A DNA stretch of 64,000 nt, from the NCBI RefSeq assembly GCF_030384885.1, contig NZ_CP128615.1. The stretch is one strand, 5' to 3'. This document shows, piece by piece, positions 2,862 through 60,833 of this stretch. The position numbers were made by a program, and so were the translations under genes. A model generated the notes under the pieces. That model saw only the letters and a list, made by a program, of their open reading frames with translations, did no database searches and was not told the DNA's origin. This DNA is from Escherichia coli. Lineage in GTDB: Bacteria > Pseudomonadota > Gammaproteobacteria > Enterobacterales > Enterobacteriaceae. Every line of letters begins with the position of its first letter. Position 1 is the stretch's first letter.

Positions 2862-3092
2862 ATGCGCACAGTTTCGATATTTAAAAACGGCAATAACCGC
2901 GCCATCCGTCTGCCCCGGGACCTGGATTTTGATGGCGTCAGCGAGCTGGAGATCGTCCGGGAAGGGGACAGCATCATTCTGCGTCCCGTCCGGCCGACCT
3001 GGGGCTCGTTCGCGCAGCTGGACAGGGCCGATCCGGACTTTATGGCGGAGCGTGAGGATGTGGTCAGCGATGAAGGACGCTTTGAGCCATGA
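2862..3092 (+). CDS. vagC: VagC/VapB-type antitoxin (AbrB/SpoVT fold)
   Basis: 76-aa ORF MRTVSIFKNGNNRAIRLPRDL...; 4-bp overlap with downstream PIN toxin. Confidence 0.9.
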   Translation: MRTVSIFKNGNNRAIRLPRDLDFDGVSELEIVREGDSIILRPVRPTWGSFAQLDRADPDFMAEREDVVSDEGRFEP

Positions 3093-5941: not shown

Positions 5942-6325
5942 GGGCAGTCAGTATGGCAGTGATGACTGGCAGCGGTTCTGCCGGGCCAATAATCTGGTAC
6001 CGAGCATGAGCCGTCGCGGCAACTGCTGGGATAATGCAGTGGCAGAATCGTTCTTCAGTTCACTCAAAAAAGAGCGCATCAGGAAGCGGATATACAAAAC
6101 CCGGGACATGGCCCGGGCGGATATTTTCGATTATATTGAAGTGTTCTACAACCGGGCCCGGCGCCACAGTCATCTCGGCGGCGTCAGCCCGGAGGCCTTC
6201 GAAAAGGCCTCGCAGTGAGGACAGAAACTGTCTACCGGAGCGTGGTCACTCCACATTTAAAGAAACGAGCTTTGGTAAACATACCTGTAATGACTCCATA
6301 AAATGGCGCGTCAAACGACACCTAA

Positions 6326-8401: not shown

Positions 8402-8417
8402 GTTTCACCTCAGCGCC

Positions 8418-14758: not shown

Positions 14759-14773
14759 ATGATCTTGCGCCTC

Positions 14774-16537: not shown

Positions 16538-16553
16538 AGTTATCCGTTGCCTC

Positions 16554-19500
16554 TTACTTAATTCTTACTCGGTCGCCAGCTTTGACCGCAGCAATCAGCT
16601 GCTCTCTTAAAGCGGCAAGATAGGCATCAACTTCGGCTTCACTTTCAATGAATCCGGTTGTTACTGACTTAGCCATGGCATCGGTTGAGTTAATCGTTAC
16701 GGTACGTTTTGCAACCGGCTGTGGCTGCACTGGTTCAGAGGCTGGCTCAGGTGCTGGAGCTGCTTTACCGGCTTTCGCTGCTTCCTCTTCGCGTGTCTGC
16801 TGTTCGAGTTCACGACGTCTTTGCTCAGCTTCAGCTTTTTTGCGTTGATCTTCGATAAAGCCATTCAGCAACTCATAGGCTTCGTCCTCGTAACCTTCCG
16901 CTTCAGTTTGCTCACTGATAATTTGTGGTATTGAAGAGGTCGCTTCAATACGCTGTCTGCACATTTGTAACGGGCGCAGTGCTTGGTTCTGTAATTCAGA
17001 CGGTGCATGAGCTTCAGCTAGCGCTTCTTTTACACGTCCGATGCGCAGATCAACACGCTCTAAGGCATGAGTGCGTTTTTCTTCAACCAATGTTGAGTTA
17101 ATTTTTGCCACCTGCTCGATAAGCGGATTAATGTGGCGCAGCTGCTCATACGGCGAGGGCATATTGTAAATGCGTTCTAATTCAGTGAGCGCTTTTAATG
17201 CTTCACTGTCTTTTTCTAACGCAGGTCTATTGGCCTTAAACTTCTCGTTCAATGCGCCAGCAAGGGCTTGCCAAGTTTGAAATTGGCTATTGTAGAAGTC
17301 ATCAAGATCCTCAAAGTCCTCAGCAAACTCTTCAAGGGCATCAGCGTTTTCTAAGAATCGGGTGATAAGAGCGAAGCTTGAAGTTTGCTCAAGAATACCC
17401 GCGACCAATGCAAGACCATCGTCAATTTGAGATTTACCTGGGAAATGGCCTGTCTGTGACTTGGTTCTGAATGATTTAAGCTCTTCATTCCAAGCCAGTA
17501 ATTCATCGCGCACTAATTCGTAGAGCTCCTTTTCACCAGAGCCGGTAAAGGTTTTTGAAAAGATCTCTTTAACAAGACCAGCAGCCTTTTTGATTTGGCG
17601 CTCGTCATGTTGCCTGATTTTATGTACACGGATCTCACCGCGTTTACGCACGCTGGTAAACGGCTCGTAAGCTTTTTTCAACGCCAGATCTGTGCCCTGG
17701 GTACTAAAAGATAACTTTCCAGCCAAGCCCAGCCTTGCAGTGAGCAATAAGATTTCATTGTCTGGCCAGCCATACGGGCGCTTGCCGAAGTGGGCAACGA
17801 TGTCACGTAAGTAAACAGGCTCATTACGCTCGACTTTTAGCGTTACGTACTGCTCAACCTCACGCGTAGCTTCTGGGTTACATTCATCCGCTTGAAGATC
17901 CAGTCCAATCTGAGCAATATCATCAGCAACAAGTACGGCCTGTAGCTCACGCAAAACTTCACCAGGCGTCGCCTTGAGCATGTTCAATTTAGCGAAGGTG
18001 TTTTCGATAACGTATTTGTATGCTTCTTCGACGATGGCACTTGGCGTTGCTGATTTCTTCGGTAGTTTTGTGCCGATAGCGTAAACGTCAGCCTCTGCAA
18101 ACAAAGCTTCAAAATCCGTTCTTAAGCGTTTTTCACGCTCAATATTTTCCATCTGCTTTTCGCGGAGAAGGTGTTCTTGCTCTGGTCGCTGTCCTGAATT
18201 TTGTTTTAAGAATCGGTCAGTTTTTATAAAGGTTGTCAGGTCATCCCAAAGACGTTTATGTTCGCCCAGCTTGACGAGCACGCACCCATCAGCCTCAAGC
18301 GTATGATTGATGCAGGCTTGATCGTGGGAGTAATTTTCAAAGTGCGAATCCAAAGGTGAAATGACTTTAATGACTAGATCTTCCAGCGTGGTGCCATCTT
18401 TTGGATGACCATTGCAAAAACGGCTCACCGCAAAGTCTTGCTTATTAATCGGGTATCGATAGGCACGATTACCTTTCAAAATACCGTCAAATACGATTGC
18501 TGAAAGCTTGTTAGAGACCTCTGACATTTCAACGTCAGTGTGGCGGATCTCGTTTTCAATCTCTTTTTCTTCGTTGGTCAGGAAGATAAATTCATCACCA
18601 TTACGCGCAATCAGCAATTGGCGTTCAAGACGATTCAAGCTCTCTTCAATTTGTTTACGCAGCGCAATTTTATCTGCATCGATTCGATCAATTGACAGCG
18701 TCACAAGGTTGTCTAGTGTGCTTTTGACAACGTCCACATAACGGATCAAGAAAAGAGTTTTTAGAATCTTGCCATCGAATTCTGTTAAGGAATCCAACTC
18801 ACAGGCTTGGTCAATCGTTCGCTTAACCGCTGGCTCCAAAAAGCTTTCAATCGGTGCATAGAAACTGTAAAACGGGATTAACACATCAAGGCCAGAGTCC
18901 TTCATCTGTTTTGCAGCTGATTGGAAAGCATCAAGTAATGAACGCTCACCCATGGCTAAGTGCTTACCCGTCGCGCCTTTTGTTCGAATTGACTCAAACA
19001 CTTTTTGAACCAGCGTGTAGTGGTAAGGCACAAACGGATAGTTGTCCACGAAAGACGGAGCGTCGGTGTAGCCCTTTAGAGACGCAGTTGTCGTTTTATC
19101 AAATGTCAGCTGGTTACGAAGAATGTCGCCCTTTTCAGCAAACACATCGATGAGGTGTGTACGAGCTTCTTCCGTTTTGGACAACAAACGCTTTTGAATA
19201 ACTTCCGAGGTATTCGAGCTCGACAGCTGCAAGCGGGTACTAAAACGCCCTTGAATTTTAGAGAAGTCCTCGCCATCGCGCTTATCCATACCACCAATGG
19301 CAGCATCAATGTCTGCCTGAGAGGTAACAACGACCCAAGCTCTGCCACCACAATATGTGCCAAGATCTTCAGTAATGGTCTGAAGCTTCAACATCATTTG
19401 TGTGTTCTTACCGATAAACTGACCGACTTCATCGACTAAGAAAAGAAGGTTACGATCTCCAGTTCGATCTAAGTATTCATTAACCCACTTACAGAAGTTT

Positions 19501-20231
19501 CGGATATCTAGCGGGAAATTGTTTTCAACCTGTTCAACCCACGCTTTGGCAGACTCTAATGATTGCTCACTGGCATGAGCGAGTGCTTCTGAAAGTTCGT
19601 CTCGATAGAAGTCATAGGCGTCACGCTCCTTTTCCCAAGTTGATTGAGTCAACTCAGCAAATTTGTCCTTGAAAGACATGTATTGATTACGCTTATCAAG
19701 CTCGCGTTCTAAATGCGCAATGTGAGGAAAATCAGCGCAGTATCCTACACGCTCATTAAAGACTTTGAGGAAGACCTTAAGAATGGCATTTTCTCGGTCA
19801 TCCGTATTGGCTCGTGAATCGATGTTAAAAAGAATAACATCAGTGTCTTTGGTAACAGCGTTTTGGATATCGGCCAACAGCATGGCATCGTTGATTTTGT
19901 CTTTAAAAAACTCAAATGCTTGACGGCCTTGGCCATCCTTTTCGACAGACTTATTTTCGAGGAGGTAAGACAAAATTTTCAGGAAGTGAGACTTACCCGA
20001 ACCAAAGAAGCCAGAGATCCACACACCAATTTTTCCTGACATTGATGCGCCACTTTGCGTCACAGATGGAACGTAAGCCTCAAAGAAAGCGCGAAAATGT
20101 CGATCTAGCTCTCGGGTTACAACATACTCATCAAGTTCGACATACACACTGTCATTGTCTTTCTGTTCCGCTTTAACAACGCCGTTAATATCACGCGTCA
20201 ACTTCTTGGAAAAAATCTGTTCAATTTTCAT
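16554..20231 (-). CDS. brxC: BREX BrxC (large P-loop ATPase)
   Basis: 1225-aa ORF; Walker A GFFGSGKSH; position downstream of brxB. Confidence 0.9.
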   Translation of the reverse strand: MKIEQIFSKKLTRDINGVVKAEQKDNDSVYVELDEYVVTRELDRHFRAFFEAYVPSVTQSGASMSGKIGVWISGFFGSGKSHFLKILSYLLENKSVEKDGQGRQAFEFFKDKINDAMLLADIQNAVTKDTDVILFNIDSRANTDDRENAILKVFLKVFNERVGYCADFPHIAHLERELDKRNQYMSFKDKFAELTQSTWEKERDAYDFYRDELSEALAHASEQSLESAKAWVEQVENNFPLDIRNFCKWVNEYLDRTGDRNLLFLVDEVGQFIGKNTQMMLKLQTITEDLGTYCGGRAWVVVTSQADIDAAIGGMDKRDGEDFSKIQGRFSTRLQLSSSNTSEVIQKRLLSKTEEARTHLIDVFAEKGDILRNQLTFDKTTTASLKGYTDAPSFVDNYPFVPYHYTLVQKVFESIRTKGATGKHLAMGERSLLDAFQSAAKQMKDSGLDVLIPFYSFYAPIESFLEPAVKRTIDQACELDSLTEFDGKILKTLFLIRYVDVVKSTLDNLVTLSIDRIDADKIALRKQIEESLNRLERQLLIARNGDEFIFLTNEEKEIENEIRHTDVEMSEVSNKLSAIVFDGILKGNRAYRYPINKQDFAVSRFCNGHPKDGTTLEDLVIKVISPLDSHFENYSHDQACINHTLEADGCVLVKLGEHKRLWDDLTTFIKTDRFLKQNSGQRPEQEHLLREKQMENIEREKRLRTDFEALFAEADVYAIGTKLPKKSATPSAIVEEAYKYVIENTFAKLNMLKATPGEVLRELQAVLVADDIAQIGLDLQADECNPEATREVEQYVTLKVERNEPVYLRDIVAHFGKRPYGWPDNEILLLTARLGLAGKLSFSTQGTDLALKKAYEPFTSVRKRGEIRVHKIRQHDERQIKKAAGLVKEIFSKTFTGSGEKELYELVRDELLAWNEELKSFRTKSQTGHFPGKSQIDDGLALVAGILEQTSSFALITRFLENADALEEFAEDFEDLDDFYNSQFQTWQALAGALNEKFKANRPALEKDSEALKALTELERIYNMPSPYEQLRHINPLIEQVAKINSTLVEEKRTHALERVDLRIGRVKEALAEAHAPSELQNQALRPLQMCRQRIEATSSIPQIISEQTEAEGYEDEAYELLNGFIEDQRKKAEAEQRRRELEQQTREEEAAKAGKAAPAPEPASEPVQPQPVAKRTVTINSTDAMAKSVTTGFIESEAEVDAYLAALREQLIAAVKAGDRVRIK

Positions 20232-20249
20232 TCGGGAGGCTCCCTGCTC

Positions 20250-20843
20250 TTAATTTTTTTTACCGTCTTCAGGCACAAGCTTGAAGGCGCGATAGTAGTT
20301 TTTAGATTCGATCATGCCGAAAGGATGCAAATCCCTTCCGCTATATTCACCCGGATAGAAAAGCACTAATGGCGTGCTACCCATAACGTCTTGCAGAGCA
20401 CTAAGTAACTCATGTCCTCGGATAAGAGGCCACGCACTGCCTAAGCCTGACAGCAACACAAACTCAAGTTCTGATGGCTTATATTTGTCCGCGATATACC
20501 TTGCCACTTTCTCTTGGCTCAGAGGCCCGGCTAGTGTTTTTCGAAGGCCATCAACACCGACTTGCAATTCACGCTGGCAAGCTCGGTCGAAAAGGCCTCG
20601 CTCCTCAAGCATATCTATCAAGACTTCAAAAATATTGAGATGGACAAAGCGGTAACCACGCTTGTTGAGTTTTTCGTCAACGTGCTTAATGTGCTCTCGT
20701 ACAAGCAGTTCATACTTGGCTGGATAGTCAAATACCCAAAATCCAATTTCATTGCCCAAGCCATCGTTTTTCAAAAACTTAGGGCTTTCAATTCGTTCCA
20801 GTATCAGATCAAGCCTGGTCTGAAGAGCCTTCATATTGTGCAC
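20250..20843 (-). CDS. brxB: BREX BrxB (DUF1788)
   Basis: 197-aa ORF immediately upstream of brxC, overlapping brxA; size and position typical. Confidence 0.8.
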   Translation of the reverse strand: MHNMKALQTRLDLILERIESPKFLKNDGLGNEIGFWVFDYPAKYELLVREHIKHVDEKLNKRGYRFVHLNIFEVLIDMLEERGLFDRACQRELQVGVDGLRKTLAGPLSQEKVARYIADKYKPSELEFVLLSGLGSAWPLIRGHELLSALQDVMGSTPLVLFYPGEYSGRDLHPFGMIESKNYYRAFKLVPEDGKKN

Positions 20844-21430
20844 TCCATTACCTCAATCAAATCTTCCCGGCCCAGACGAACTAACCAGTCTTTAACTTCT
20901 GGCATTAGGTAAACAGGTTGTATTTTCTTTGTCCTGCTATCACTCAGGTAGCCACTATCAACCAGTGCCTTAATTGCGTTGTTACCCATTTTTTTGACAG
21001 TTGAGTCAGAAAAACCGCCAAGCTCAGCATATGCCCGCACTCTCGTGTCATAAAACTCAGACCATGCATCAGCGGTTAAAGAGGGTTTATAGGTGCGACG
21101 AGCTTCGGCTAAGGTAAGTCGCATAAAATAAGCGACAACCGGAGAATGAATGAGTAATGACATCATCAGCATTTGGACATAGGCACGTTCACTCGCGGCT
21201 AAAAGATCAGTCATAAACTCATCACCCAGGCCTTCAATACGCCAACGGATTGTTCTGGCATAACGAATAGCCGTCTGACCGGATTTTTTCTGAAGAACAT
21301 TTTGCTCAACGATCAGCGACTTCCACTCATCTTCTGGAAGTTTTTTCAATAGCGATTCTGCGATTATTCTAGATTCAGTTATCAATAAACTGCCTCCGAT
21401 AAGATCGCCTAAATATTCTTTTATATTCAT
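20831..21430 (-). CDS. brxA: BREX BrxA (DUF1819)
   Basis: 199-aa ORF first structural gene of operon; size and position typical. Confidence 0.8.
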   Translation of the reverse strand: MNIKEYLGDLIGGSLLITESRIIAESLLKKLPEDEWKSLIVEQNVLQKKSGQTAIRYARTIRWRIEGLGDEFMTDLLAASERAYVQMLMMSLLIHSPVVAYFMRLTLAEARRTYKPSLTADAWSEFYDTRVRAYAELGGFSDSTVKKMGNNAIKALVDSGYLSDSRTKKIQPVYLMPEVKDWLVRLGREDLIEVMECTI

Positions 21431-21439
21431 AAATTCATC

Positions 21440-22366
21440 TCACGATTCGCTATATCCAGGAGCGAGTGCAGCATTGTCAACGCCGTATAGTGCTTCTGGA
21501 TTTTTAAGTGCTAAATGGAACTCTCGCCCATTGCTCTTACAATTCTTTGAACAATCGATATTCCATAAACGCAGTAAATATCCAGCGAACGCAGCTCTTA
21601 TCTCTACACGCAACCTATTGTTTTCCATTGCGTAGTCCATCGATACAGCTTCTGGATGTGCTAGTTTTGGATGAGGTATCAGCTCTAGCTCAACGATTCG
21701 GTTCCATTGCTTATCCCACTGAAGAGTCTCAACTTCGTCGTTAACCTCATCCTCTAACAACTCAACTTCACTTATTCTGGTTAAAACAAAATCCCTAAAT
21801 TCTCTAAGCTTTCTATCGAATGCTCGGACATGCCATCTCAAGCCATTGTCAATCAGGGTATGAGGAACTATTTGCCTGCTCCCATGACCACTCGACAATG
21901 AGGTGTACTCAATATTAATCACAGCGCGCTTATGTATGGCTTCACTAATAGCCGCTACAACTTCCAATTTCGGCTTATTGAGATGGAATGGTGCTTCACA
22001 AGCCATAGGTGGCCTGGCCTTGCCAAGAAAGCCATCACCGAACCCTTGGCTTATCGTCGCAAGAGTTCGAACAACGTCATAATCAAACAACGGCTGGAAT
22101 GCGCTCGTCTTCAAGTGCACTCTGCGCTTTTCGTCATACATAACGTTGTTAGGAGCCAACTCTTTGTACCGCGCAAAATCTTGTGTTGCCACAGACGGCG
22201 CTACGCTAAATCGCTCGGTTAAATAACTACGCCCAGCTTCACCTTTAAATAACAAAGTGAAATCAATATGAGCGAGTCGTTCTCTCTGTGCTTGGCTAAG
22301 CTCTTCAAGTCCAGTGTTGTCTTGCACTGTCAGCCTCTCAATCCATCTGGGACAAGCCCTAATCAT
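21440..22366 (-). CDS. brxR: BrxR-type WYL-domain transcriptional regulator
   Basis: 308-aa ORF upstream of brxA; WYL-like core (RWHVRAFDRKLREFRDF); true start may be an internal Met. Confidence 0.75.
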   Translation of the reverse strand: MIRACPRWIERLTVQDNTGLEELSQAQRERLAHIDFTLLFKGEAGRSYLTERFSVAPSVATQDFARYKELAPNNVMYDEKRRVHLKTSAFQPLFDYDVVRTLATISQGFGDGFLGKARPPMACEAPFHLNKPKLEVVAAISEAIHKRAVINIEYTSLSSGHGSRQIVPHTLIDNGLRWHVRAFDRKLREFRDFVLTRISEVELLEDEVNDEVETLQWDKQWNRIVELELIPHPKLAHPEAVSMDYAMENNRLRVEIRAAFAGYLLRLWNIDCSKNCKSNGREFHLALKNPEALYGVDNAALAPGYSES

Positions 22367-35147: not shown

Positions 35148-35666
35148 GAGCTCCCATCGCTGCGCGACGGGCCCCAACCGGAGAACCAAGTTAGTTACAG
35201 CATTCAGATGAAAATTCATCATAAAACCGGCGCCGGTTTGCCAGCCAGGAGCCCCTCCCCACCACTGAAAAGCGCCGCCGCCCCCGGCCGAAGGCCGGGA
35301 GTAGTGTCGCTTTTAATGATGGGTGTTGTAACTACTCTTCGTCATCTCTGTGAGTAGTGTCGCGGTAAGTTCTGGGATACACGCTCGTAAGCGGCCCTAA
35401 CGGCCCGCTAACGCGGAGATACGCCCCGACTGCGGCTGTCGCCTTGCCGGGACCACTCCGACCGCGTACAGAGGCATCTGAGCCGTTTTTAGCGGGTATA
35501 GCTTTGCAGGGAAGGGGGTGGGTGAGGCAGAACCTGTCAAAACAGCAGCCGGCTGCGCCGGGCGACGGCGCCATTTACCCGCAGTACTCCATTCAACTTC
35601 AGCTGGCGCCTCCATGCCGCTGACGCGGCATTATCTATACTTTAAGTCTGGCCACTGGAGGTAACC

Positions 35667-35751
35667 ATGTGCGGACGTTTTTCTCAGTCTATGACGCGGG
35701 AAGAGTATCTTTCTCTCCTCGCCAATGAAGCCGATCGAAATATTGCCTACG
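35667..35751 (+). pseudogene. SRAP/YedK-like (DUF159) gene, first 28 codons only, truncated by IS903
   Basis: MCGRFSQSMTREEYLSLLANEADRNIAY with RBS GGAGGT; runs into the IS903 IR at 35752. Confidence 0.5.
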
Positions 35752-35912
35752 GGCTTTGTTGAATAAATCAGATTTCGGGTAAGTCTCCCCCGTAGCGGGT
35801 TGTGTTTTCAGGCAATACGCACGCTTTCAGGCATACCTGCTTTCGTCATTTTGTTCAGCGCTCGTACCAGGGCCATAGCGGGGTCGTTTGCGGGAGGGGG
35901 CGGAATCCTACG

Positions 35913-38798
35913 CTAAGGCTTTGGCCAGCGATATTCTCCGGTGAGATTGATGTGTTCCCATCCGAGCGGCGAAACATGGGCCAAGAGATCGGGCGATAGC
36001 AGCTTTCCATCGCGTTTCTGGTTTGCAACGACCTCGCCGAGCTTCATGGTGTTCCAGAAGATGATGATGGCGGCGAGCAGATTCATGCCGGCGATGCGGT
36101 AATGCTGGCCTTCGGCGGAACGGTCGCGGATTTCACCGCGGCGGTGGAAGCTGATTGCCCGCTTCAGCGCATGATGAGCTTCGCCTTTGTTGAGCCCGAT
36201 CTGGGCACGCCGTTGGAGTTCGGCATCCAGAATCCAGTCGATCATGAACAGGGTGCGCTCGACGCGACCGACTTCCCGCAGGGCTGTCGCGAGCTCGTTC
36301 TGCCGCGGATAGGAGGCGAGTTTCCGCAGAATCTGGCTTGGCGCGACGGTCCCGGCAGCAATGGTGGCGGCGATGCGCAGGATGTCGGGCCAATTGCGCT
36401 CGATCATGGCTTGGTTGACCTTTCCGCCGATCAACGCTCGCAGGTGCGCCGGGGCGGCCGACGGATTGAACGCGTAGAGCCGTTTGGATGGCAGGTCGCG
36501 GATGCGCGGAGCGAACCGGTAGCCGAGAATGGCACATGCGGCAAAGACGTGATCGGTGAAGCCGCCCGTGTCGGTGAACTGCTCGCGGATATGGCGTCCA
36601 GCATCGTTCATCAGCAGGCCATCGAGGATGTAAGGCGCTTCGCTTGCCGTTGCAGGAATCACCTGGGTTGCGAACGGCGCATATTGGTCGGAGACGTGGC
36701 TATAGGCTTTCAGGCCCGGGGTATTGCCATATTTCGCGTTGACCAGGTTCATGGCCTCACCTTGCTCTGTAGCGACGAAGAACTGTCCGTCGCTCGAAGC
36801 CGACGTGCCCATGCCCCAGAACCGGGCCATGGGTAACGCTGCCTGTGCCTCGACCACCATGGCCAGCGCCCGGTCATAGGCTTCGCCCTCGACATGCCAC
36901 CGTCCAATGCGGATCAATTCCCAGAAGGTGTGGGTGTTTGTCGCATCCGCCATTTTGCGCAAGCCGAGGTTGATCCCTTCCGCCAAGATAACGTTCATTA
37001 GCCCGATCCGGTCAGCGCAGGGTGCTCCTGTGCGCAGATGGGTGAACGCTTCGGTGAAGCCGGTCGCCGCATCCACCTCCAGCAGGAGATCGGTGATGCG
37101 CGTGGGCGGGATCTGCTTGTAGAGATCGAGCACCAGATCTTCGGCGCCTGTCGGCGCGGCGGCTTCGAGTTTCTCGATATGCAGAACGCCGTTTTCAATC
37201 GACCCGCCCGGGATCGTGCCTGCGCGAGCGGCACGGCCAAGCTCGCGCAACCGCATGTCGAGGCGAGCTTGCCGGTCTGCCAGCCATTCCTCCGGCCGCA
37301 ATGGCACAGCGAGACGACCGCCTTCCGCGATGGATTGTGCCGGAACGAGTGCGTGTTTCAGATCGCCATAGCGCCGGGACCTAGTAAGCCAGACATCTCC
37401 GGAGCGGAACGCATCGCGCAGATGGAACAGCACCGCGATCTCCCATAGGCGAGCGTCGCCAGCCCTCTGGGCCCGAAGGTGGCGATGCCATTTCGAGCTG
37501 GGCCGCAAGAAGCTGGTCATCGCGGCATCGTTCAAACCGGTACGAAGGGCCGTCACCGCTTCCAGAAGCGGCAGTGCAACGGGCGCAGCTCGCAGATCGA
37601 GCAGGCGCAACATGCGTGGAGCGTATCGGCGGAAGCGGTGATAACCGTCGAGCACATGATTGAGCGGATCGTCGGCCATGGTGGCGGTCAGCCTGGTTGC
37701 CATTGCAACAAGGGTTTTTAAGCCGTCCCACCCTGACCCACTCGCGATGACATCGCCCAGCGGCTGGCCATCATCCTGTGCATCGACCAGGGCGCCCCCG
37801 ATCTCGGCGAAGGATTTCAGGGTGTCACGCACCACCCCCGCTTCGTCTGCGACCTTTGCATGGCAAATACGCTCCGAAGCACGGTAGAGACGGCCGACGA
37901 TCCGGTCGTGGGTTTCGACCACTGCGTCGGCCAACATCGCCTGCCATTCCGAGACGCAAACAGCCAAGATCGCAAGCCGCCTGTCCTCCGGGAGATCGCG
38001 CATGCCGTCGGCATAATACCGTTCACCCTGCCTGCGCAGACGAGTCACCCGATGGGCAGGAACGCCGGCAAGCAGATCCTCGGGGAGATCGATGCGTTGC
38101 AGATATTCGAGCCGGTCGAGCAGCCGGTTGGCCGACGAAGAGTTCGAGCCAGGCTCGAACTGGCGCAGCCACACAAAACGGGTCACCCGATCATCAGCCG
38201 TCTCCTCGAGCAATGCCAGCAACTGTTCTCGGATCGACATAGGCAGCCGACTGGCGATCCTCGTCTCGATGCGTCGCTCGGCATCGACGAGAGCCGCGGC
38301 ACAAAGCCGCTCGATCGTGGATGTCGCGGGAAGGACAGTGCGGGTGCGTCGGCACTCGGCTACGAAGCGACGGGCGATATCCTCGTTCGACACCGCCATC
38401 TCGGCTTCTCGGAACAACCATTCCTTCAGCTCGCTCGCACCACGTCCGGAGAAGGTGCGGAAGCCGTAGAGCCCCCGTAACTCGGCAAGATGCTCGTGCC
38501 GTGTTTCCTCGCGGGCAGCATAGTCTACGAGATCGTCGGCACCCAGGCCAAGCTGCGCTCCGATAAATTCGATGACCTCTGCAGGGATCAGTTCGCCTGG
38601 AGCCAGCACCCGGCCGGGATAGCGCAGGACACACAATTGCAGGGCGAAGCCGAACCTGTTGTGAGCGCGCCGACGCAGCCTGATATGCCCAAGGTCTTCA
38701 TCACTCAGCGTATAGTGCTTGAGCAAATCCGTCTGTGAAGTCGGCAAGCGCAACAGCGCGTCTTTCTGCCGATCGGTTAGAGTGACGCGACGCGGCAT
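35913..38798 (-). CDS. tnpA: Tn3-family transposase TnpA (Tn5393)
   Basis: 961-aa ORF; C-terminal ...[17 protein letters not shown]. Confidence 0.9.
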   Translation of the reverse strand: MPRRVTLTDRQKDALLRLPTSQTDLLKHYTLSDEDLGHIRLRRRAHNRFGFALQLCVLRYPGRVLAPGELIPAEVIEFIGAQLGLGADDLVDYAAREETRHEHLAELRGLYGFRTFSGRGASELKEWLFREAEMAVSNEDIARRFVAECRRTRTVLPATSTIERLCAAALVDAERRIETRIASRLPMSIREQLLALLEETADDRVTRFVWLRQFEPGSNSSSANRLLDRLEYLQRIDLPEDLLAGVPAHRVTRLRRQGERYYADGMRDLPEDRRLAILAVCVSEWQAMLADAVVETHDRIVGRLYRASERICHAKVADEAGVVRDTLKSFAEIGGALVDAQDDGQPLGDVIASGSGWDGLKTLVAMATRLTATMADDPLNHVLDGYHRFRRYAPRMLRLLDLRAAPVALPLLEAVTALRTGLNDAAMTSFLRPSSKWHRHLRAQRAGDARLWEIAVLFHLRDAFRSGDVWLTRSRRYGDLKHALVPAQSIAEGGRLAVPLRPEEWLADRQARLDMRLRELGRAARAGTIPGGSIENGVLHIEKLEAAAPTGAEDLVLDLYKQIPPTRITDLLLEVDAATGFTEAFTHLRTGAPCADRIGLMNVILAEGINLGLRKMADATNTHTFWELIRIGRWHVEGEAYDRALAMVVEAQAALPMARFWGMGTSASSDGQFFVATEQGEAMNLVNAKYGNTPGLKAYSHVSDQYAPFATQVIPATASEAPYILDGLLMNDAGRHIREQFTDTGGFTDHVFAACAILGYRFAPRIRDLPSKRLYAFNPSAAPAHLRALIGGKVNQAMIERNWPDILRIAATIAAGTVAPSQILRKLASYPRQNELATALREVGRVERTLFMIDWILDAELQRRAQIGLNKGEAHHALKRAISFHRRGEIRDRSAEGQHYRIAGMNLLAAIIIFWNTMKLGEVVANQKRDGKLLSPDLLAHVSPLGWEHINLTGEYRWPKP

Positions 38799-44066: not shown

Positions 44067-44246
44067 ATGAATAAACCAGCAGATCTGAAACCCCGCAACT
44101 TATCGGCTGCTGTCAGATTGCGCCTAAATGAAATCGAGAACTGGCTGGACAGAGGGCTAACGCGGCATGAAATTGCTGAAATCCTCGACAGCGAATACAG
44201 CTTTTCGGTAACAGCCAAAGGGCTTGAGATGGATGGCACTGTATAG
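44067..44246 (+). CDS. small hypothetical protein (59 aa), possible DNA-binding regulator
   Basis: strong RBS GGAGGGGG 6 bp upstream; MNKPADLKPRNLSAAVRLRLNEIENWLDRGLTRHEIAEILD...; below the ORF-track length cutoff. Confidence 0.45.
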   Translation: MNKPADLKPRNLSAAVRLRLNEIENWLDRGLTRHEIAEILDSEYSFSVTAKGLEMDGTV

Positions 44247-44465
44247 AACGCGGCAAAACCGAAAAAATGTATTGCACAATACGCATGATAAGAGTAGCGC
44301 GAAGGGTGCAGCGGAAAGTGTATTGCACAATACACAACCGTCTGAGCCTGAAGTGCAGGAAAGTAAAAAAGCAGAGAGTCCCGGCATTATTGATAAAGAA
44401 TTCTTCAAGAAAATCGGTGAGAATTTCGACCCTAAGAAGTTCAACAAAAAATTCTGAGGTGATTT

Positions 44466-45597: not shown

Positions 45598-46099
45598 GTC
45601 TGTGTTGTAAAATGGCGCCGAAAGCCCGGCGTAGCCGGTTGCCGGGCTATAAATTCTGCCACCCTACCCCCTGCCCTGATTAGCCTTAACTCGCGAACAG
45701 CAATGAAGAAGTCAAAGTAATCCCTTTTAACCCCGGTGAGCGGGCTTTACGGCGTTTACGACGTAAAGGGCGTGATTTCCGGGGCCTAAGCGGCGGCAGC
45801 TTGCTGCTGACGCTTAGGGGGATGTTCATCAACTATTTCAGCGACACCAGGGAACTTAACACGGTAGCTGCAAAGCCCTAATCCCGCTCACCGCCACGCA
45901 GCTGCCGTACGTCCCCCACGGGGGTGCGCAGTGCTGCGCGCGGGAACGGCGGCCCGTCTGCGGGACGCGGCGCCGTACTGCGCGTTAGCGGCCGCACGCG
46001 GCCGGTTACGGGGGACACTCCGCCATACGACCAGCGACCCGCTGAGCTGCACAATCCACAGATAACACAAGCTACATACATGTCGATATGGGAATCGGC

Positions 46100-47789: not shown

Positions 47790-49700
47790 TCTGGATTATC
47801 GTCACGCTGTTAAATATGTCGCGGTAGGGATACCCGTTACCGGATACCCCCCGCACAGATCCCGGCGTGCGCGATTTACGCACCGGGCTCCTGCCTCGGG
47901 TGTCTGGCGGTGAACCGCTCCACAGGCCATGGATGAAGAACCCGAACCCTTGGTAGCCATGCGGCTGCCAGTTTGTTTGCTTTCGTCCAGGTCGTATCAT
48001 CCTTCTGGCTCCTGCGCCTGAGCGCCCGGCGCCAGAGGTTTGTTACGTGTGTCCTGAACTTCTGCATGGTGGGGAAGTTGCCCGGTACCGAGTGATAGTT
48101 CAGGTATCCCTGAACCACTCTCCTGAGCCATTTTCCCTGTTCGGGGATTGAGTAATGCCAGCGCCTTCGCAGACCGTCTTTGATGGCTTTCAGAGTTGCC
48201 GTCATCCGATCCCGGCGGGTCTTTCGTATCAGCATGAACCTGCCGTTGCGATCTTTCCCGCTGATGTGCGTGAACCCGAGGAAGTTGAACGTTTCTGGTT
48301 TGCCTTTTCCCCTGATGGCACGGTTTTCGGCAGCGAAGCGGCCGAACTCCATCAGACGGGTTTTCTCCGGGTGAACCGTGAGTCCGAACTCCCTCAGTCT
48401 GCGCTGCATGGCTATACGGAAGCGCCGGGCATCGTATCGTTTGTCGAACCCGATGACGATGTCATCGGCGTATCTGACCATTACCACATTGCCTGTGGCA
48501 TAGCGACGTCGCCACTGATGCGCCCACAGATCGAAGACGTAGTGGAGGTATATGTTTGCCAGCAGCGGTGAGATGACCGCACCCTGTGGGGTGCCTTCCT
48601 CCGTTGCTCGCCATTGACCCTCCTCCAACGTCCCGGCTGTGAGCCACTTACGTATGAGCCTGATTACGCTCCGGTCGCCGATCCGATGCTCTGTGAACCT
48701 GATCAGCCATTCGTGGCTCACCCTGTCGAAGAACTGACTGATGTCGGCATCCAGTACCCAGTTTACGTTAGTGCGTACCAGCCCTGTGGCCAGTGCGTCC
48801 AGTGCATCGTGCTGGCTTCGCCCGGGTCTGAACCCGTATGAGAACCCCATAAAGTCGTTTTCATAGACTGCGTTCAGGATTTTCACCAGCGCATACTGGA
48901 CGATCTTGTCCTCCAGCGAGGCGATGCCGAGCGGGCGTTGTTTTCCATCCGCTTTTGGGATGTAGTGACGCCTGCCGGGCTGCGCCCTGTAGCTGCCCTA
49001 ATGTAGCCTCCGGTGCAGATCTGTTATGTTGTTCTTCATGTTTCCGGCGTAGTCCATCCACCTGATGCCATCCACTCCGGCGGCCGCTTTCCTGCTCAGG
49101 GAGAGGAATGCGGCTTCCAGTGCTTCGACTGTCAGCAGGTGGAACAATGCTGTAAACCGTTCTTTCTTCCGCTGCTTCGCAGCTTCCCGCACGCGTGACA
49201 GCCTCTGTGACATGCTTTCCCGGCTCTGTGTCCGGCGCATGTGTGGCTGTTCCGCGTTCCCCTTGGCCCCGCTCCTTCGCTCCACTGACTCCGCTCCTTT
49301 CGGGTTGTTCGCCTGCTTCGCCGCTACTATGAGCGAGTCCGACTTCTCCTCTCCGTACATCACCGGCTATGACTCCTCGTCTTCCCGGTGCGGGCCGTCT
49401 CCGACACTGGCAGATGGTCAGAGGGGAGATCTCCCGGTTCCCGCGTAGAGATCGTATTGACATGCCAGGGTCTCAGACCCCGCCGGGTCCATGTGGCACT
49501 CGCAGTATCGCACCCTATGATGTTGCCTTCCGTTAACAGTACAACGTCGGCACCCGGTAATTTAATATACATTTCGTGGCTCAATGGCTGGCCTGTCAAC
49601 ACCCCTGTCAACGCTTCGCCCCATACCTCGCGGTATGCAACGCATGACTCGGGGACCTTGTGGATTGCTGGTCCTTCAATGGTCGGGGACTTTCACCCCT
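47790..49700 (-). mobile_element. bacterial group II intron (boundaries approximate)
   Basis: intron-encoded RT/maturase ORF; domain V-like hairpin in the reverse complement of 47845-47880; 5' boundary not pinned. Confidence 0.6.
47876..49363 (-). pseudogene. group II intron reverse transcriptase/maturase, interrupted by one in-frame TAG
   Basis: two same-frame ORFs (48998-49363 and 47876-48886) separated by a TAG at 48998-49000; RT motifs ...GVDGIRWMDY..., ...FSYGFRPGRSQHDAL..., ...YADDIVIG... Confidence 0.75.
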
Positions 49701-53732: not shown

Positions 53733-54125
53733 TTATCACCTCATGACGTTTTTTGTCATTTTGAACAAAAAGTGTCATGTTGCAAGAAAAAAATCATATT
53801 GTTTTGATTTCGCTCTCAACAGAAGGGGGATGAAGCTCGACGGGCGTGCTACTAAATCACACTGCAGCAACACGCAGACGCACTTTTGACCATCAACAGC
53901 AACTCATACAAAAGGGCTTTGAGAAAGGTATTCAACTTGCAAGACAGGAGAGTCATTCAGAAGGATTCTGATTTTAGTTACGACCAGTGCAATGCTGAGC
54001 CTTATGTATCAGCGCTCGCCGCAGCCATGTAACCGAGCGTAGCGAGCGAACTGGCGAGGAAGCGAAGAGGAACCGTTCCGGCAGATAGCTCTTACGCTCA
54101 GCACAAGAAGAGTTTTCCATCCTCT

Positions 54126-54545
54126 GTGGGAAACAGGTCAACTTTAATGGACGCTCCGGACTATGGGAAACAGGTCAACTTCGCGGACGGCCCGGACTAT
54201 GGGAAACAGGTCAACTTCACGGGCGGCCGGGAGTGTGGGGAACAGGTCAACTTCGCGGACGGCCCGGATTATGGGAAACAGGTCAACTTCGCGGGCGGCC
54301 GGGACTGTGGGAAACAGGTCAACTTTGCAGACGGCCCGGACTGTGGGAAACAGGTCAACTTCGCGGGCGGCCGGGAGTGTGGGGAACAGGTCAACTTCGC
54401 GGACGGCCCGGACTAAGGGAAACAGGTCAGCTTCTCGGACGGCCCGGACTATGGGAAACAGGTCAACTTCTCGGACGGTCGGGAGTGTGGGAAACAGGTC
54501 AAGTTAGGCAAGCACTATGGGAAACACAGCAAGTTCAGTATCCCC
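54126..54545. repeat. tandem array of about 11-12 copies of a 36-bp repeat (putative repA iterons / copy-control array)
   Basis: unit TATGGGAAACAGGTCAACTTCGCGGACGGCCCGGAC; immediately downstream of repA. Confidence 0.7.
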
Positions 54546-54592: not shown

Positions 54593-55459
54593 CTATTGTT
54601 TTTTATCAAGAAAATTAAACAGCAAGCGACCATCTTCTTCAGTGGTATATGTTACCTTTAATGGCGTCTTCTCATTAATTTTCTTCAGAGCAGGTTCCAG
54701 GAAGGTACGCTTCATTTCAGCAATATTGTTTTTCTGCGAGGCAGGGAGCATAAACCTTTCACATAACCAGTCATGTGTGGTGATCCAGACACCAGTGCTC
54801 CGGAACTGACACAGGCTTTCATAAAGCCGGATGACACGAACACTATTAAGCTGGCCACAGTCATAGAGAGAATAGGTAGTGAACTGGGAGGTTAAGCCGA
54901 CCAGGAATGGCATGACCTTGTAGTTAAATTCAATCTGCCAGGAACCCCGGCCTCGCTTCATTCCTGCTTCAGCCAGCCACGGACGTTTAACTTCTTCAAA
55001 CTCACCTTCTTTTGGATAAAAGGTAACCGTTGATTCGCCCAGAGCATTTACCCCAGCCTTCACATCACGACTGGCGACAGACGTAGCGACATTGAAGTAT
55101 TTGACGTAATCGGAAACGCTGATTTTGAAGAGCGGCAATACGTCAGAGTCATCTTCCTGGCTGTCATTAAAATAGGCCTGCATGAGGCATAACCACAGCA
55201 CACGTTTTGCCTGAAGAGGCAGGTAATATGCAGCTTCGGTCAATTCGTTAGATTGCTTTATACTGGCGCGTTTTTTAAACGTTTTAGTAGCTGGCAAGAG
55301 TGCTTGAGTATCCATTTCAATGCCTATGGGTAAATTTTTACCCACCCATAATGACAGTGAAAACAGAAATTGCAAGCTATCGCGATACTTATCCACCGGA
55401 AAAATCTGCACTTTATCCACAAGTGGATAATTGAGAACTGAACTTGACCTCTTTCCCAT
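54593..55459 (-). CDS. repA: Rep_3-family replication initiator (RepFIB-type)
   Basis: 288-aa ORF; N-terminal IKQSNELTEAAYYLPLQAKRVLWL typical of Rep_3. Confidence 0.85.
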   Translation of the reverse strand: MGKRSSSVLNYPLVDKVQIFPVDKYRDSLQFLFSLSLWVGKNLPIGIEMDTQALLPATKTFKKRASIKQSNELTEAAYYLPLQAKRVLWLCLMQAYFNDSQEDDSDVLPLFKISVSDYVKYFNVATSVASRDVKAGVNALGESTVTFYPKEGEFEEVKRPWLAEAGMKRGRGSWQIEFNYKVMPFLVGLTSQFTTYSLYDCGQLNSVRVIRLYESLCQFRSTGVWITTHDWLCERFMLPASQKNNIAEMKRTFLEPALKKINEKTPLKVTYTTEEDGRLLFNFLDKKQ

Positions 55460-56221: not shown

Positions 56222-56479
56222 ATGAAACTTGAAACTATACAGATAGATAATACCGTAAGGAGTGGTCTTAATTCTTTCACTGACGGGGTGATTATTCGTG
56301 ATACAAAGGTATTGATCACGCTCAATCTCCCGGATGGACAGAAAACCACTATTGAGGGGGAATGGCGGCATATGTCGGACGCCAACAGGTTGTCAGAACG
56401 TATTACGATGCTTCAGCATGCGATCTATGAGCAGTATGAGGAATACAGAGCAGATATTCCCGTCAGCTGGTCCAGATAA
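56222..56479 (+). CDS. hypothetical protein (85 aa)
   Basis: RBS AGGAGG then MKLETIQIDNTVRSGL...; no recognisable motif. Confidence 0.5.
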   Translation: MKLETIQIDNTVRSGLNSFTDGVIIRDTKVLITLNLPDGQKTTIEGEWRHMSDANRLSERITMLQHAIYEQYEEYRADIPVSWSR

Positions 56480-56536
56480 CGTCTGACAGACCTCCCCGGC
56501 GAGCAGGACGTTCGCCAGCATCATTCTCCTAAGTAC

Positions 56537-57315
56537 TTAAATATTCCCTTTCAGCATGGCTACCGCATCCGCTTCGGGCATCTGAAACTGAACTCGATGC
56601 CGCGCAGCAACATCAAGTGCGAACACCTTCGTATAGACTTCCGTCGAGCTAATCGATTTGTGGCCCATCAGGCTCTGCAAAACCTTCAGTGGTATGCCGG
56701 CATACAGCACATATGCATCGCGTAGGAGTGGCGGAACGTATGCGGGGTGACCGGCACCGAGAATGTCACCCCGTCGACGGCGGCCGCTTCAACCGCTTCG
56801 CCAATCCAGGTCCGTACTGTCCGGTCGGTGATGTCCCAGATGCGGGCTTTCTCTGTTCTGCCGGTACGCTTGTTGCGTCTTTCCAGCGGAATTTTCAGGG
56901 TGGCCACCATCATCTGCAGCTGGCTGACGTAGTGGTGATCGGAAAGCGGAACCAGACGATGAGCCTGGCTACCGGCGGGAGCTCGGCCGGCTGTCCTGGC
57001 CGCTTTTTCGGTGCGCTGCTTAAGCGTGGCCAGCTGCACGAACGGATACGGTGGCACCAGCGAAAAATCCCCCCGGGTCAGCGCCAGCGCCTCGTTGATA
57101 CGTGCGCCGGTGTTCCAGAGGGTTGCCAGCAGCATCTTGCGGTGCAAATCGGGCACATAATGGAGCAGGGCGCTGACTTCCGGTGCCAGCAGGTATTTCG
57201 GTAGTTCATCTTGAACGAGCGCCATCTGGCGCAGGGCCAGCGCGGCGGGATAGTCAATGGCCACCGGCATTTGCGCCGGCTGCTGCGGGTGAGAATATGA
57301 TAAGAGGCCGCTCAT
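56537..57315 (-). pseudogene. tyrosine site-specific recombinase (XerD/ResD-like) with frameshift upstream of the catalytic Tyr
   Basis: ORF 56686-57315 ends ...HTFRHSYAMHMCCMPAYH*; the adjacent frame continues LYAGIPLKVLQSLMGHKSISSTEVYTKVF... Confidence 0.7.
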
Positions 57316-58055
57316 TGGTTTGACATTCCATCAGGTATCACTAATTGATTCCACTCCCTGTTGCGGGTAGCTTCAGCAGCGCGCAGGGCTCTTTCGCGCC
57401 TCCAGACTTTACGAAACACGGAAACTGCAGACCATTCATCATGACCTGTAAGACGTGTTTCGGGCATCCCGGTTGCCTTGCGCAGACGGACGGCAAGAAT
57501 GACAGCGTTGATGCCCAAGCGCGTGAACTGATACTGCCGTTCCCTGAAATAGTCCTTATGCCAAGGAGGGTCGGAGTATTCGGCGGCATATGCAATTGCC
57601 CTGTGGGCCTCATCCTGGAGCACCGGCAGTTCACGGATGCGATACATAAGACGTGGCTCTAAAGTCCGCCAGTCACCGGAGACATCGATCAGATTCAGTT
57701 CAGGGTAATTCGTGACAGCTTTTCTCTCAGGCTGGGGGGCATCATCATCCTGGCCGTCATCCGTCACAACCCGGAAACAACCCTCAGCATACCGTTCAAG
57801 CATGAATACCAACTCGGTGGCAATGTAATGCAGTTCCTTTTTCATTTTATCTTCTGACGCCTGTCTCTCACGCTTAAGCGTGAAATAATGTGTCAGCCAG
57901 ATGCCAGTGAGTGTTATACCCCCAGTAAGCAGGCCAGTGATAAGCCCGGTTGCCACGTTTCCCCAGATCCCCGCCCCTTGATTAATCAGCTGTACGGAAA
58001 CCGGATGGGATGTCGCAGCAACTATACTCTCAGTTGCGGCCTGTATATCAGTCAT
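57312..58055 (-). CDS. hypothetical membrane-anchored protein (one N-terminal TM helix)
   Basis: 247-aa ORF; hydrophobic segment GNVATGLITGLLTGGITLTGIWL; 4-bp overlap with the recombinase start. Confidence 0.6.
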   Translation of the reverse strand: MTDIQAATESIVAATSHPVSVQLINQGAGIWGNVATGLITGLLTGGITLTGIWLTHYFTLKRERQASEDKMKKELHYIATELVFMLERYAEGCFRVVTDDGQDDDAPQPERKAVTNYPELNLIDVSGDWRTLEPRLMYRIRELPVLQDEAHRAIAYAAEYSDPPWHKDYFRERQYQFTRLGINAVILAVRLRKATGMPETRLTGHDEWSAVSVFRKVWRRERALRAAEATRNREWNQLVIPDGMSNQ

Positions 58056-58105
58056 TGATCATTTACCCCTTTATATTCCTGAGAAATCCCGCCCTCTGTC
58101 CGTAG

Positions 58106-58456
58106 TCAGCGGCCGGCAGCCAGCTCTTCAGCCAGTTTCACAAACCTTTTGTGCTCAGTCTGCAGGTAATGGCTGTAAATCCGGGCATCACGTTCTGTCA
58201 GTCCGGATGGATTGCCGGTGAAGTAACGTTGCAGCACCGCAATACAGTGATTGTAGGTATCGAGATCATATTCCCAGTTTCCCAGCTCACCGGCCGCATC
58301 CAGTTCCTGGCGAAACTGCTCGTATTTACGGAGCAGAATGCCAAGACCTAATTCTGTTGCAGCATAAAGATTATTTTCTCCTGGCGCGGAAATCGCATTA
58401 CGGATTTTTTCAAAAGCATAACTGAAATCATTTCTCTCATTGAATGCAGTAAACAT
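58106..58456 (-). CDS. hypothetical protein (116 aa)
   Basis: ORF 50 bp upstream of the membrane protein gene, same strand; no recognisable motif. Confidence 0.5.
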   Translation of the reverse strand: MFTAFNERNDFSYAFEKIRNAISAPGENNLYAATELGLGILLRKYEQFRQELDAAGELGNWEYDLDTYNHCIAVLQRYFTGNPSGLTERDARIYSHYLQTEHKRFVKLAEELAAGR

Positions 58457-58859
58457 GTCCTTTCCTCAGTTGAATAGTTAGCCGTGCAATTTTACCACAC
58501 CTCAATCATCGTCAGATGAGTGCCACTCTGTCGCGACAGTGACTTTCACGAGAGTGATTTTCACATACTAAAATAATAAGCAGCCATATAACAACGTAAT
58601 TAAATTACCTGACGGCCGCTCTGGCCGGATCCGACTTTTATGTTATTCCACAGTTTCCGGAAGTGTACCACGCACACGGAATAACCACAGCGCCCTTTCA
58701 GGGTGGTGAGCGGCCGGTCACGGGGCAGGGGAGGGGCACAACATATATGGTCACTGACAGCTGGAAACACCGCTACATCTTGTGTTTCCGGGCCGCTGCG
58801 CGCCGGCGGGGCTGAATCAGATCCGGAACTGGTGGTTTTCGGATCTGCGGTGGAGAAAT

Positions 58860-59026
58860 GAGAAAACAGGATATGCGCAGCATATCCACATGCCACGCAT
58901 CTGCATAGGGCAGACATACGCATATGTCAGTCATCTGCATATGTTACACCTATACAGACCAGTCCGGCAGGCATATACTGCACATATGTACTCACACATC
59001 ATGCATGATCAGCCGGAGGAACATCC
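58860..59026 (+). promoter_or_regulatory. putative promoter/operator of second vagC copy (CATATG / CATCTGCATA repeats)
   Basis: repeat pattern related to, but diverged from, 2700-2861. Confidence 0.4.
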
Positions 59027-59257
59027 ATGCGCACAGTTTCGATATTTAAAAACGGCAATAACCGCGCCATCCGTCTGCCCCGGGACCTGGATTTTGACGG
59101 CGTCAGCGAGCTGGAGATCGTCCGGGAAGGGGACAGCATCATTCTGCGTCCCGTCCGGCCGACCTGGGGCTCGTTCGCGCAGCTGGACAGGGCCGATCCG
59201 GACTTTATGGCGGAGCGTGAGGATGTGGTCAGCGATGAAGGACGCTTTGAGCCATGA
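59027..59257 (+). CDS. vagC: VagC/VapB-type antitoxin, second copy
   Basis: 76-aa protein identical to the first copy; two synonymous DNA differences noted. Confidence 0.9.
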   Translation: MRTVSIFKNGNNRAIRLPRDLDFDGVSELEIVREGDSIILRPVRPTWGSFAQLDRADPDFMAEREDVVSDEGRFEP

Positions 59258-59349
59258 AGAAAACCTGGATGCTCGACACTAACATCTGCTCGTTCATCAT
59301 GCGCGAGCAGCCGGCAGCGGTGCTGAAGCGCCTGGAGCAGGCGGTGCTG
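59254..59349 (+). pseudogene. vagD: vagD (PIN toxin), first ~32 codons only, truncated by IS21-family element
   Basis: MKKTWMLDTNICSFIMREQPAAVLKRLEQAVL then IS terminus TGTCAACGCC... Confidence 0.85.
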
Positions 59350-59407
59350 TCAACGCCACGATGTTTGACCGTTATTTGCCATTTTCATGCCCGCTAAGAT
59401 ACTTTCG

Positions 59408-60191
<784 letters not shown>

Positions 60192-60195
<4 letters not shown>

Positions 60196-60833
60196 AACAG
60201 CTCCTCATAGGCACTCAGTGGTCGATGTTCCACCTGACTGACCTGCTGCCAGAGCGGGGCGTGATGCTCCGGCACTGTCTGCCAGCCAGACGATGCCGGA
60301 CAGAGGCGATGTGAGGCCACCAGTTTCTCATTACTGTAGATCCGCAACTCGTCATCCAGCGATATTCGTATCGATACTGGCTGACCACACAGCGCTTCGG
60401 GAACGCTGTAACGATTACCACCAACCTCGATATAGCTGTCCCAGGACACATGGCGGATGTCGAAGTAACTGGTATCGAAGTCCGTATCCGGTAACGGCTG
60501 CAGATGTTCCTGCTCCAGCGCGAAGCGCTGTTCCGGCGTTTCTTTGAACTGGCGAAGCTCCCGTTTGTCAGCCACATCGGCTATCCATTGCTCCAGTTGT
60601 TGATTAACATGAGTGAAGCTGTCGAACCTGCGGTACCGGACGAAGAAGTTCTCCTTGAGGTATTTCACCATCCGCTCAACCTTACCTTTTGTTCTGGCCC
60701 TGCGTGGACGGCATGCCCGTGGCAGGAAGTTATAGTGGTCGGCCAGCAACAGGAATCCGGAGTTGAACACGACTTTCCCGTTGTTATTCTTCAGCACCGC
60801 AGCCTTCTGGTTATCAACCAGCACCGTTTTCAC
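60192..60833 (-). pseudogene. istA: IS21-family IstA transposase, C-terminal 213 codons only
   Basis: ORF ...[23 protein letters not shown]...; overlaps istB start. Confidence 0.75.

Follow-up and report, generated by a model that had tools for sequence, protein, structure and literature searches.

A frameshifted resD in a probable rfsF-ResD multimer-resolution module of the IncR plasmid backbone, preceded by two genes that look like variable cargo

The F plasmid carries an operon, ccdA-ccdB-resD, which together with the rfsF site and the D protein was reportedly described by Lane et al. in 1986. In F, the D protein, ResD, also acts as a transcriptional repressor of the rfsF/oriV1 region. F ResD is a tyrosine-recombinase resolvase that acts at rfsF (PMC5587640, PMC7157771, PMC4398462). 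The gene resD, or 'rfsF-resD', is also listed as part of the IncR plasmid backbone, with vagCD beside rfsF (PMC7707992, PMC9412624, PMC12310702), and rfsF has been placed at the corresponding position in IncR and F (PMC9412624, PMC4398462). Here, a stretch of 64,000 nucleotides from Escherichia coli (assembly GCF_030384885.1, contig NZ_CP128615.1; hereafter the window) was analyzed around a cluster of three genes at 56537-58456, in which a reading of the letters alone (hereafter the original prediction) had seen two unrecognised proteins and a frameshifted tyrosine recombinase. The locus is probably an rfsF-ResD multimer-resolution module of the IncR backbone, in which resD is broken and the two upstream genes are passengers and not ResD cofactors.

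The list of open reading frames (ORFs) and the sequence confirmed a tight cluster of three minus-strand genes encoding a protein of 116 amino acids (aa), one of 247 aa and the recombinase, the last of them split in two:

58106-58456, minus strand: first gene, encoding the 116-aa protein, of a family annotated merely as 'hypothetical protein'.
57312-58055, minus strand: second gene, encoding the 247-aa protein, with a Gly/Thr-rich N-terminal hydrophobic helix and a probably cytoplasmic four-helix bundle; PADLOC family PDC-S67.
56686-57315, minus strand: 5' part of resD, encoding ResD residues 1-202, seven aberrant codons and a stop (209 aa, ending ...HTFRHSYAMHMCCMPAYH before the stop).
56537-56707, minus strand: 3' part of resD, out of frame, encoding ResD residues 203-258, including His218 and the nucleophile Tyr227.
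56708-56709: 2-bp tandem duplication that breaks resD (CA on the plus strand, TG on the coding strand), in this sequence only.

The first two genes are spaced by 50 bp, with no terminator predicted in the gap, and the second overlaps the recombinase gene by the predicted 4 bp, ATGA at 57312-57315; the two upstream genes are probably co-transcribed with resD. The cluster adjoins an IncR replicon, with the RepB gene at 54593-55459 and iterons at about 54124-54502. IncR plasmids also share, between repB and resD, an ORF of 85 aa (WP_000764642.1, hypothetical) that lies at 56222-56479 on the plus strand of the window and converges with resD.

The region 56400-58600, used as a megablast query against PLSDB, matched 4,362 plasmids; 866 of them, mostly from Klebsiella, Escherichia and Enterobacter, were at 99% identity or above. 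The best matches were to plasmids typed IncR, in which a 'site-specific integrase' and hypothetical proteins are annotated between the replication gene and vapBC/vagCD. The intact IncR integrase (258 aa, reference allele L001) gave tyrosine-recombinase family matches (Phage_integrase, PF00589) and was identical in 224 of 244 residues (92%, E 3e-168) to the 268-aa protein that follows ccdA-ccdB in F, a closeness that places it among the ResD/D-protein resolvases of F-like, IncI1 and IncR plasmids. The recombinase pieces in the window matched this intact allele at 99.5% identity (residues 1-203) and 85.5% (residues 190-258, an aligned segment that extends back over the frameshift). Judged from these alignments the recombinase is not novel but a known protein in a known place. 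The original prediction had missed that the recombinase is the well-known ResD, that it has an rfsF-like site a short way upstream and that the module belongs to the standard backbone of IncR plasmids (PMC9412624, PMC7707992).

The rfsF-ResD modules described in IncR plasmids (pHN84KPC, pST1023 and pK245-type) are the same locus, with the published gene order vagCD - rfsF - resD - repB; they differ from the window in its private 2-bp duplication alone, and the descriptions consulted name resD and are silent on the two co-operonic genes. The F operon likewise ends with its (92% identical) recombinase gene, adjoins an iteron replicon and has the same rfsF-like blocks about 200 bp upstream of its first gene. 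However, F has ccdA and ccdB upstream of resD where the window has the unrelated 116-aa and 247-aa genes, and resD is frameshifted in the window. Cre/loxP, XerCD/cer and other tyrosine-recombinase systems of dimer resolution share the catalytic family and the role in resolving plasmid dimers, whereas ResD is much shorter, with about 35 residues ahead of the catalytic domain in the XerD alignment, and sequence identity is limited to the catalytic motifs. By analogy with F, an intact ResD would act on a plasmid dimer by recombining its two directly repeated rfsF sites, and the monomers so restored would allow partition to work; such activity is established for F and is suggested here by the 92% identity to F ResD and by the conserved rfsF-like region upstream. 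A second ResD paralogue, 47% identical, is found in F beside the RepFIB replicon (L013 4619-5359, equivalent to F plasmid 35618-36358), indicating that short ResD-like recombinases accompany iteron replicons more than once per plasmid.

The DNA upstream of the operon was compared with six loci: F ccdA, an E. coli IncFIB/FIC plasmid (L009), an IncR variant with ccdAB (L010), a Klebsiella IncFIA/FII plasmid (L011), a Kosakonia chromosomal island (L003) and a Salmonella element resembling an integrative and conjugative element (ICE-like; L022). Two elements were delimited:

58573-58747, minus strand: conserved rfsF-like region upstream of the operon, with blocks common to F ccdA and five other resD operons.
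58819-58846, minus strand: inverted repeat AGATCCG-N14-CGGATCT, common to F (NC_002483 45923-45950).

The rfsF-like region contains an invariant core, CGTGGTACACTTCCGGAAA, at 58654-58672 (minus strand), followed by AAAGTCGGATC and CCGGTAATTTAA blocks. The core is present in all six loci, and in the window it is bracketed by a perfect 8-bp inverted repeat, GTTATTCC/GGAATAAC (58642-58649 and 58678-58685). Its exact sequence occurs once in the window, against 0.04 occurrences expected by chance. Homology between F and the E. coli IncFIB/FIC plasmid runs from pifC to the core and ends exactly there, which is what a crossover site or crossover point would leave. In a published comparison of pEC958 and F, 'two rfsF sites' are placed at the start of RepFIA, matching F 45923-45950 (PMC4398462). 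A cognate site thus appears to stand beside the operon, as core and flanking blocks, the assignment being made by position as given in PMC9412624 and PMC4398462. Position, conservation and this secondary literature suggest that the conserved core is rfsF. Beyond it, the stretch from the rfsF-like region to vapB (58830-59025) diverged from OW849432.1 by dozens of substitutions within 200 bp, with almost none elsewhere in 16 kb. Repeats with a period of 17 bp occur in it, as does an inverted repeat of 21 nt; the stretch is possibly either a scar left by recombination beside rfsF or a variant form of the vapBC operator/promoter.

Alignment with the plasmid NZ_CP024194.1 bore out the prediction that the recombinase frame breaks after ...HSYAMHM with loss of the catalytic Tyr. 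The inserted CA was the sole difference from that plasmid over the 2.2 kb of 56400-58600 (coding strand CATATG-TG-CTG, the middle TG being the insertion). When full-length matches to an 81-bp probe spanning the site were counted, the insertion was found in 0 of ca. 2,122 PLSDB and 0 of 273 E. coli RefSeq records. Arg72 and H192-x-x-R195, aligned to XerD/XerA, are kept in the 209-aa ORF, whereas His218 and Tyr227, aligned with XerD His270 and Tyr279, are lost from the frame; the C-terminal part lies in an ORF of another frame (56537-56710) that carries MLYAGIPLKVLQSLMGHKSISSTEVYTKVF... and ...LMGHKSISSTEVYTKVF.... The full catalytic set of the family on one polypeptide (R...HxxR...H/W...Y, PF00589) is present in the 258-aa reference allele and is not found in the window. 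The gene family is certain and, as written, the resD copy of the window is a pseudogene, whose truncated product cannot catalyse recombination because His218 and the nucleophile Tyr227 are missing. A second resD copy or rfsF core that might compensate was sought in the window, and none was found save a core-like match with two mismatches at 45-60. This copy of the plasmid has probably lost its dedicated dimer resolvase, a loss that fits other decayed backbone genes, could affect stability and would be no surprise to a plasmid biologist.

A change seen in a single record could stem from misreading, and sequence alone does not separate that case from a real mutation. That the frameshift arose in sequencing or assembly, the real plasmid having an intact resD and working resolution, is possible although somewhat improbable. 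The insertion is unique to the window sequence among the PLSDB and E. coli records compared, and reference plasmids match the remainder of the 2.2 kb exactly, which speaks for an error. On the other hand, the insertion is a dinucleotide tandem duplication and not an error of homopolymer length, and a frameshift in resD is likewise present in a widespread lineage of E. coli IncFIB plasmids described below. In addition, the 16-kb IncR backbone of the window, which differs from OW849432.1 by a handful of changes outside the short variant stretch upstream of vapB, shows two further lesions, a tandem duplication of 4 bp in another gene and a premature stop codon that interrupts retA/ltrA; these few backbone changes resemble gene decay more than error. 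The former, GATG at 44228-44231 (gene 44067-44457, plus strand), puts an IncR backbone gene of 128 aa out of frame after residue 55, and the latter is a single stop in the group II intron reverse transcriptase gene (47876-49363, minus strand; 495 aa in the reference). The fragmented istA/istB ORFs of an IS21-like remnant had raised the possibility that the window is generally error-ridden, which was rejected since this other frameshifted element is 100% identical in several independent plasmids of E. coli and Shigella.

The original prediction had also allowed for a programmed ribosomal frameshift that would yield full-length ResD. The sole point in its favor is that both halves are otherwise intact. 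By contrast, the coding sequence at the site (CAT ATG TGC TGT ATG) has no slippery motif, a shift of +1 or -2 would be required to restore the frame, and in every other record covering the site the gene is uninterrupted and the protein is read in one frame, so that this explanation can practically be discarded.

To see which parts of the module are constant, the resD operons of the six loci named above were set against that of the window, identities being to the proteins of the window:

L009 (E. coli IncFIB/FIC): ResD 90%, middle gene 33%, first gene 97%.
L010 (IncR variant): ResD 94%, middle gene 48%, first gene absent, with ccdAB instead.
L011 (Klebsiella IncFIA/FII): ResD 90%, middle gene 41%, first gene unrelated.
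L003 (Kosakonia island): ResD 84%, middle gene 50%, first gene unrelated.
L022 (Salmonella ICE-like): ResD 89%, middle gene 57%, first gene unrelated.
F: ResD 88%, middle gene absent, ccdAB in place of the first gene.

The recombinase and its site stay constant, and the genes between them are exchangeable: ResD keeps 84-94% identity across plasmid, ICE-like and chromosomal loci, and the middle gene is 33-57% identical or replaced. In two more lineages, E. coli IncFIB and Pantoea plasmids, a homologue of the 116-aa protein (71 and 68% identical) is followed by unrelated proteins of 202 and 257 aa. A search of defence families with the alternative occupants of the slot gave weak matches alone, to HEPN_RiboL-PSP (E 0.024, the 257-aa protein) and to HamC/DUF3223 (E 2e-4). 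The E. coli IncFIB lineage has a frameshifted resD but an intact 116-aa homologue and an intact unrelated 202-aa gene. In plasmids of this kind (L025-L028, at about 6097-6857) resD lies in two frames, with SMODS and S_4TM genes (CBASS-type by Pfam) directly upstream; the lineage is very common, its 116-aa homologue being indexed in 1,103 assembly-collection blocks.

These comparisons bear on the earlier suggestion that the two upstream proteins are accessory resolution factors of ResD, with for example a DNA-binding or architectural role or one in the selectivity of resolution. Such a role would fit the placement of the three genes in one operon, the 4-bp overlap with resD conserved in plasmid, ICE-like and chromosomal loci, and the finding of the 116-aa family in resD operons only; moreover, with some 35 pre-catalytic residues in ResD, the part of a core-binding domain could be supplied in trans, and the 116-aa protein has a weak match to Phage_int_SAM_4 (E 0.047). 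However, neither sequence nor fold comparison detected in the 116-aa protein a SAM-like core-binding domain of the XerD/Cre N-terminal type. Furthermore, F ResD is 92% identical over 244 residues, yet no homologue of the 116-aa or the 247-aa protein was found in the 31-54 kb stretch of F, both genes are swapped for unrelated ones in other resD operons, and the genes in their two slots stay intact where resD has decayed. An accessory function is accordingly judged quite improbable.

Another possibility is that the two genes form a toxin-antitoxin (TA) or post-segregational killing pair like ccdAB, the membrane protein being the toxin and the four-helix bundle its antidote. The pair stands where ccdAB stands in the resD operon, its members are a small acidic protein and, after it, a larger one with a Gly-zipper-like hydrophobic helix and a weak holin-like PHROG match (E 0.013), and linkage of a TA pair to a resolvase is a known theme (PMC7157771). 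Nevertheless, the supposed partners travel apart: the 116-aa protein is paired with a middle gene only 33% identical or with the unrelated 202-aa or 257-aa protein, and a 227-aa homologue of the 247-aa protein occurs without any 116-aa gene in the IncR variant (L010). Neither protein matches CcdA/CcdB or any other TA family in NCBIfam, Pfam or PADLOC, and a TA pair is unlikely. The TA-resolvase modules of the Tn3 family and stability operons (PMC7157771) are similar in that stability or conflict passengers share a promoter with a resolvase beside a res site; they are dissimilar in having serine or TnpI/TnpS-type resolvases and recognisable TA families, whereas the passengers of the window belong to no TA family. 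Combined, the failure of the 116-aa and 247-aa genes to co-vary with each other or with ResD, and the integrity of the genes in these two slots where resD has decayed, argue against both obligatory cofactors and a cognate TA pair. The two genes most likely are not ResD cofactors and look like variable cargo: they would be passengers in the slot between rfsF and resD, where F has ccdAB, and may be independently selected 'conflict' cargo.

As had been predicted, neither upstream protein could be recognised, searches with hidden Markov models (HMMs) and structures giving no characterised family. The 116-aa protein is acidic and soluble (pI 5.35), has no Pfam or NCBIfam family at a meaningful level, matches just one PHROG, of unknown function, and is modelled as a four-helix bundle to which no role can be assigned.

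The 247-aa protein contains one Gly/Thr-rich hydrophobic segment at residues ca. 30-55, with a Kyte-Doolittle 19-residue maximum of 1.54. The segment recurs throughout the family, and the AF2 model shows it as a helix, with low confidence there; the single N-terminal transmembrane helix proposed originally is plausible but borderline. Basic residues after the segment indicate that the C-terminal domain is probably cytoplasmic. The rest of the protein is a four-helix bundle (pLDDT >90 for residues 50-230) with generic structural neighbours. The protein matched the PADLOC model PDLC05063, 'PDC-S67' (E 3.6e-45, 151.9 bits, residues 47-236 against profile positions 6-195 of 203), and no Pfam or NCBIfam family at a meaningful level; among PHROGs it matched, besides the weak holin-like hit, a family without known function. 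DUF4760 was not found by hmmscan in the 247-aa protein or in 52 relatives, although several AFDB homologues (26-54% identity) are named 'DUF4760 domain-containing protein'. A sequence-profile search of the PDB with the family returned KaiC alone, at noise level (E 0.15). Clustered at 50%, the family has 997 representatives and reaches Pseudomonas, Shewanella, Burkholderia and Xanthomonas. Two metagenomic contexts of distant PDC-S67 relatives were informative, and in them no integrase adjoins.

PDC systems count as candidates because at some point a homologue was seen embedded within a BREX, DISARM or type I restriction-modification (RM) locus ('guilt by embedding'; Payne et al., 10.1101/2024.01.29.577857). 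The 247-aa protein resembles the single-gene 'phage defence candidate' PDC-S67 in an HMM match over 190 of 203 positions, but its gene is translationally coupled to a resolvase and not embedded in BREX, DISARM or type I RM. Literature searches found no mention of PDC-S67, and those for the three WP accessions or DUF4760 found nothing useful. The neighbours of the modules in other hosts include pifA/pifC, CBASS-type SMODS/S_4TM, RES, GmrSD and Cap4-like genes, and such defence-rich neighbourhoods fit a conflict role without proving one. The option of a defence or stability function, also raised in the original prediction, gains modest support from the PDC-S67 match and from the presence of ccdAB in the same slot of F. 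Of the two proteins, the predicted membrane-anchored 247-aa protein appears the better candidate for a phage-exclusion or host-killing effector.

Several observations weigh against the interpretation of the locus as an rfsF-ResD module with passengers. The Kosakonia and Salmonella loci keep the 4-bp coupling between the 247-aa gene and resD, which is how a functional partnership would look, and the 116-aa family was found solely inside resD operons, in 4 of 4 contexts examined. Fold searches of both proteins led to generic helical bundles only. PDC-S67, a candidate chosen by embedding, was not found in the supplements of preprint 10.1101/2024.01.29.577857, and the roles given to both upstream proteins are proposals. 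Finally, the equation of the core with the experimentally defined rfsF is drawn from position and secondary literature.

A more far-reaching proposal, which is rather doubtful, is that the rfsF-resD stretch serves, in F-like, IncR and IncFIB plasmids and in ICE-like and chromosomal islands, as a recombination-prone cargo slot for interchangeable conflict genes under ResD control, the 247-aa protein being a real membrane-acting effector of phage exclusion or host killing. If so, the slot would hold a possible HEPN protein and other small orphans besides ccdAB and the PDC-S67 membrane protein, and where ResD is lost, as it is in the window, the 247-aa protein would be derepressed.

The module itself is largely ordinary and already known, and the frameshift is a one-off of the window sequence; what novelty remains lies in the two widespread orphan genes. 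These passengers sit at the position of a classic addiction module in about 1,600-2,000 sequenced enterobacterial plasmids, including many clinical resistance plasmids of Klebsiella and E. coli. With ResD near-invariant and the middle gene diverging fast or replaceable, the 247-aa PDC-S67 protein offers an inexpensive subject for assays of phage defence and plasmid stability.

Upstream of the operon one further element was marked:

58489-58557, minus strand: probable promoter/operator zone, recognized by eye and a weak part of the annotation.

A possible extended -10 element, TGgTAAAAT, was picked out by eye at 58489-58497, upstream of the 116-aa gene, and a scan for the sigma-70 consensus called no site on the strand of the operon. 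Just upstream of the same gene, at 58528-58557, is a tandem pair of 15-bp repeats, both containing a palindrome (CTGTCGCGACAGTGA / CTTTCACGAGAGTGA); they are operator-like and partly conserved in the IncFIB/FIC plasmid L009.

Elsewhere in the window, two copies of vapBC (vagCD) were found, an intact one at 2862-3505 and one beside the resD operon at 59027-59397, in which vapC is cut at about 59350-59400 by the IS21-like remnant with its fragmented istB/istA (59408-60833). Besides the PDC-S67 gene the plasmid has a large defence island. A Gabija system lies at 3-2572 on the plus strand (PADLOC models; GajA 520 aa, E 1.5e-101; GajB 340 aa, E 1.7e-47) and a type I BREX locus at 6326-22366 on the minus strand, with BrxL, PglZ, PglX, BrxC and a WYL-domain regulator-like gene. 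Embedded in the BREX locus, at 14774-16537, is a gene for a 587-aa HEC-05 protein whose start resembles a DUF262/GmrSD protein.

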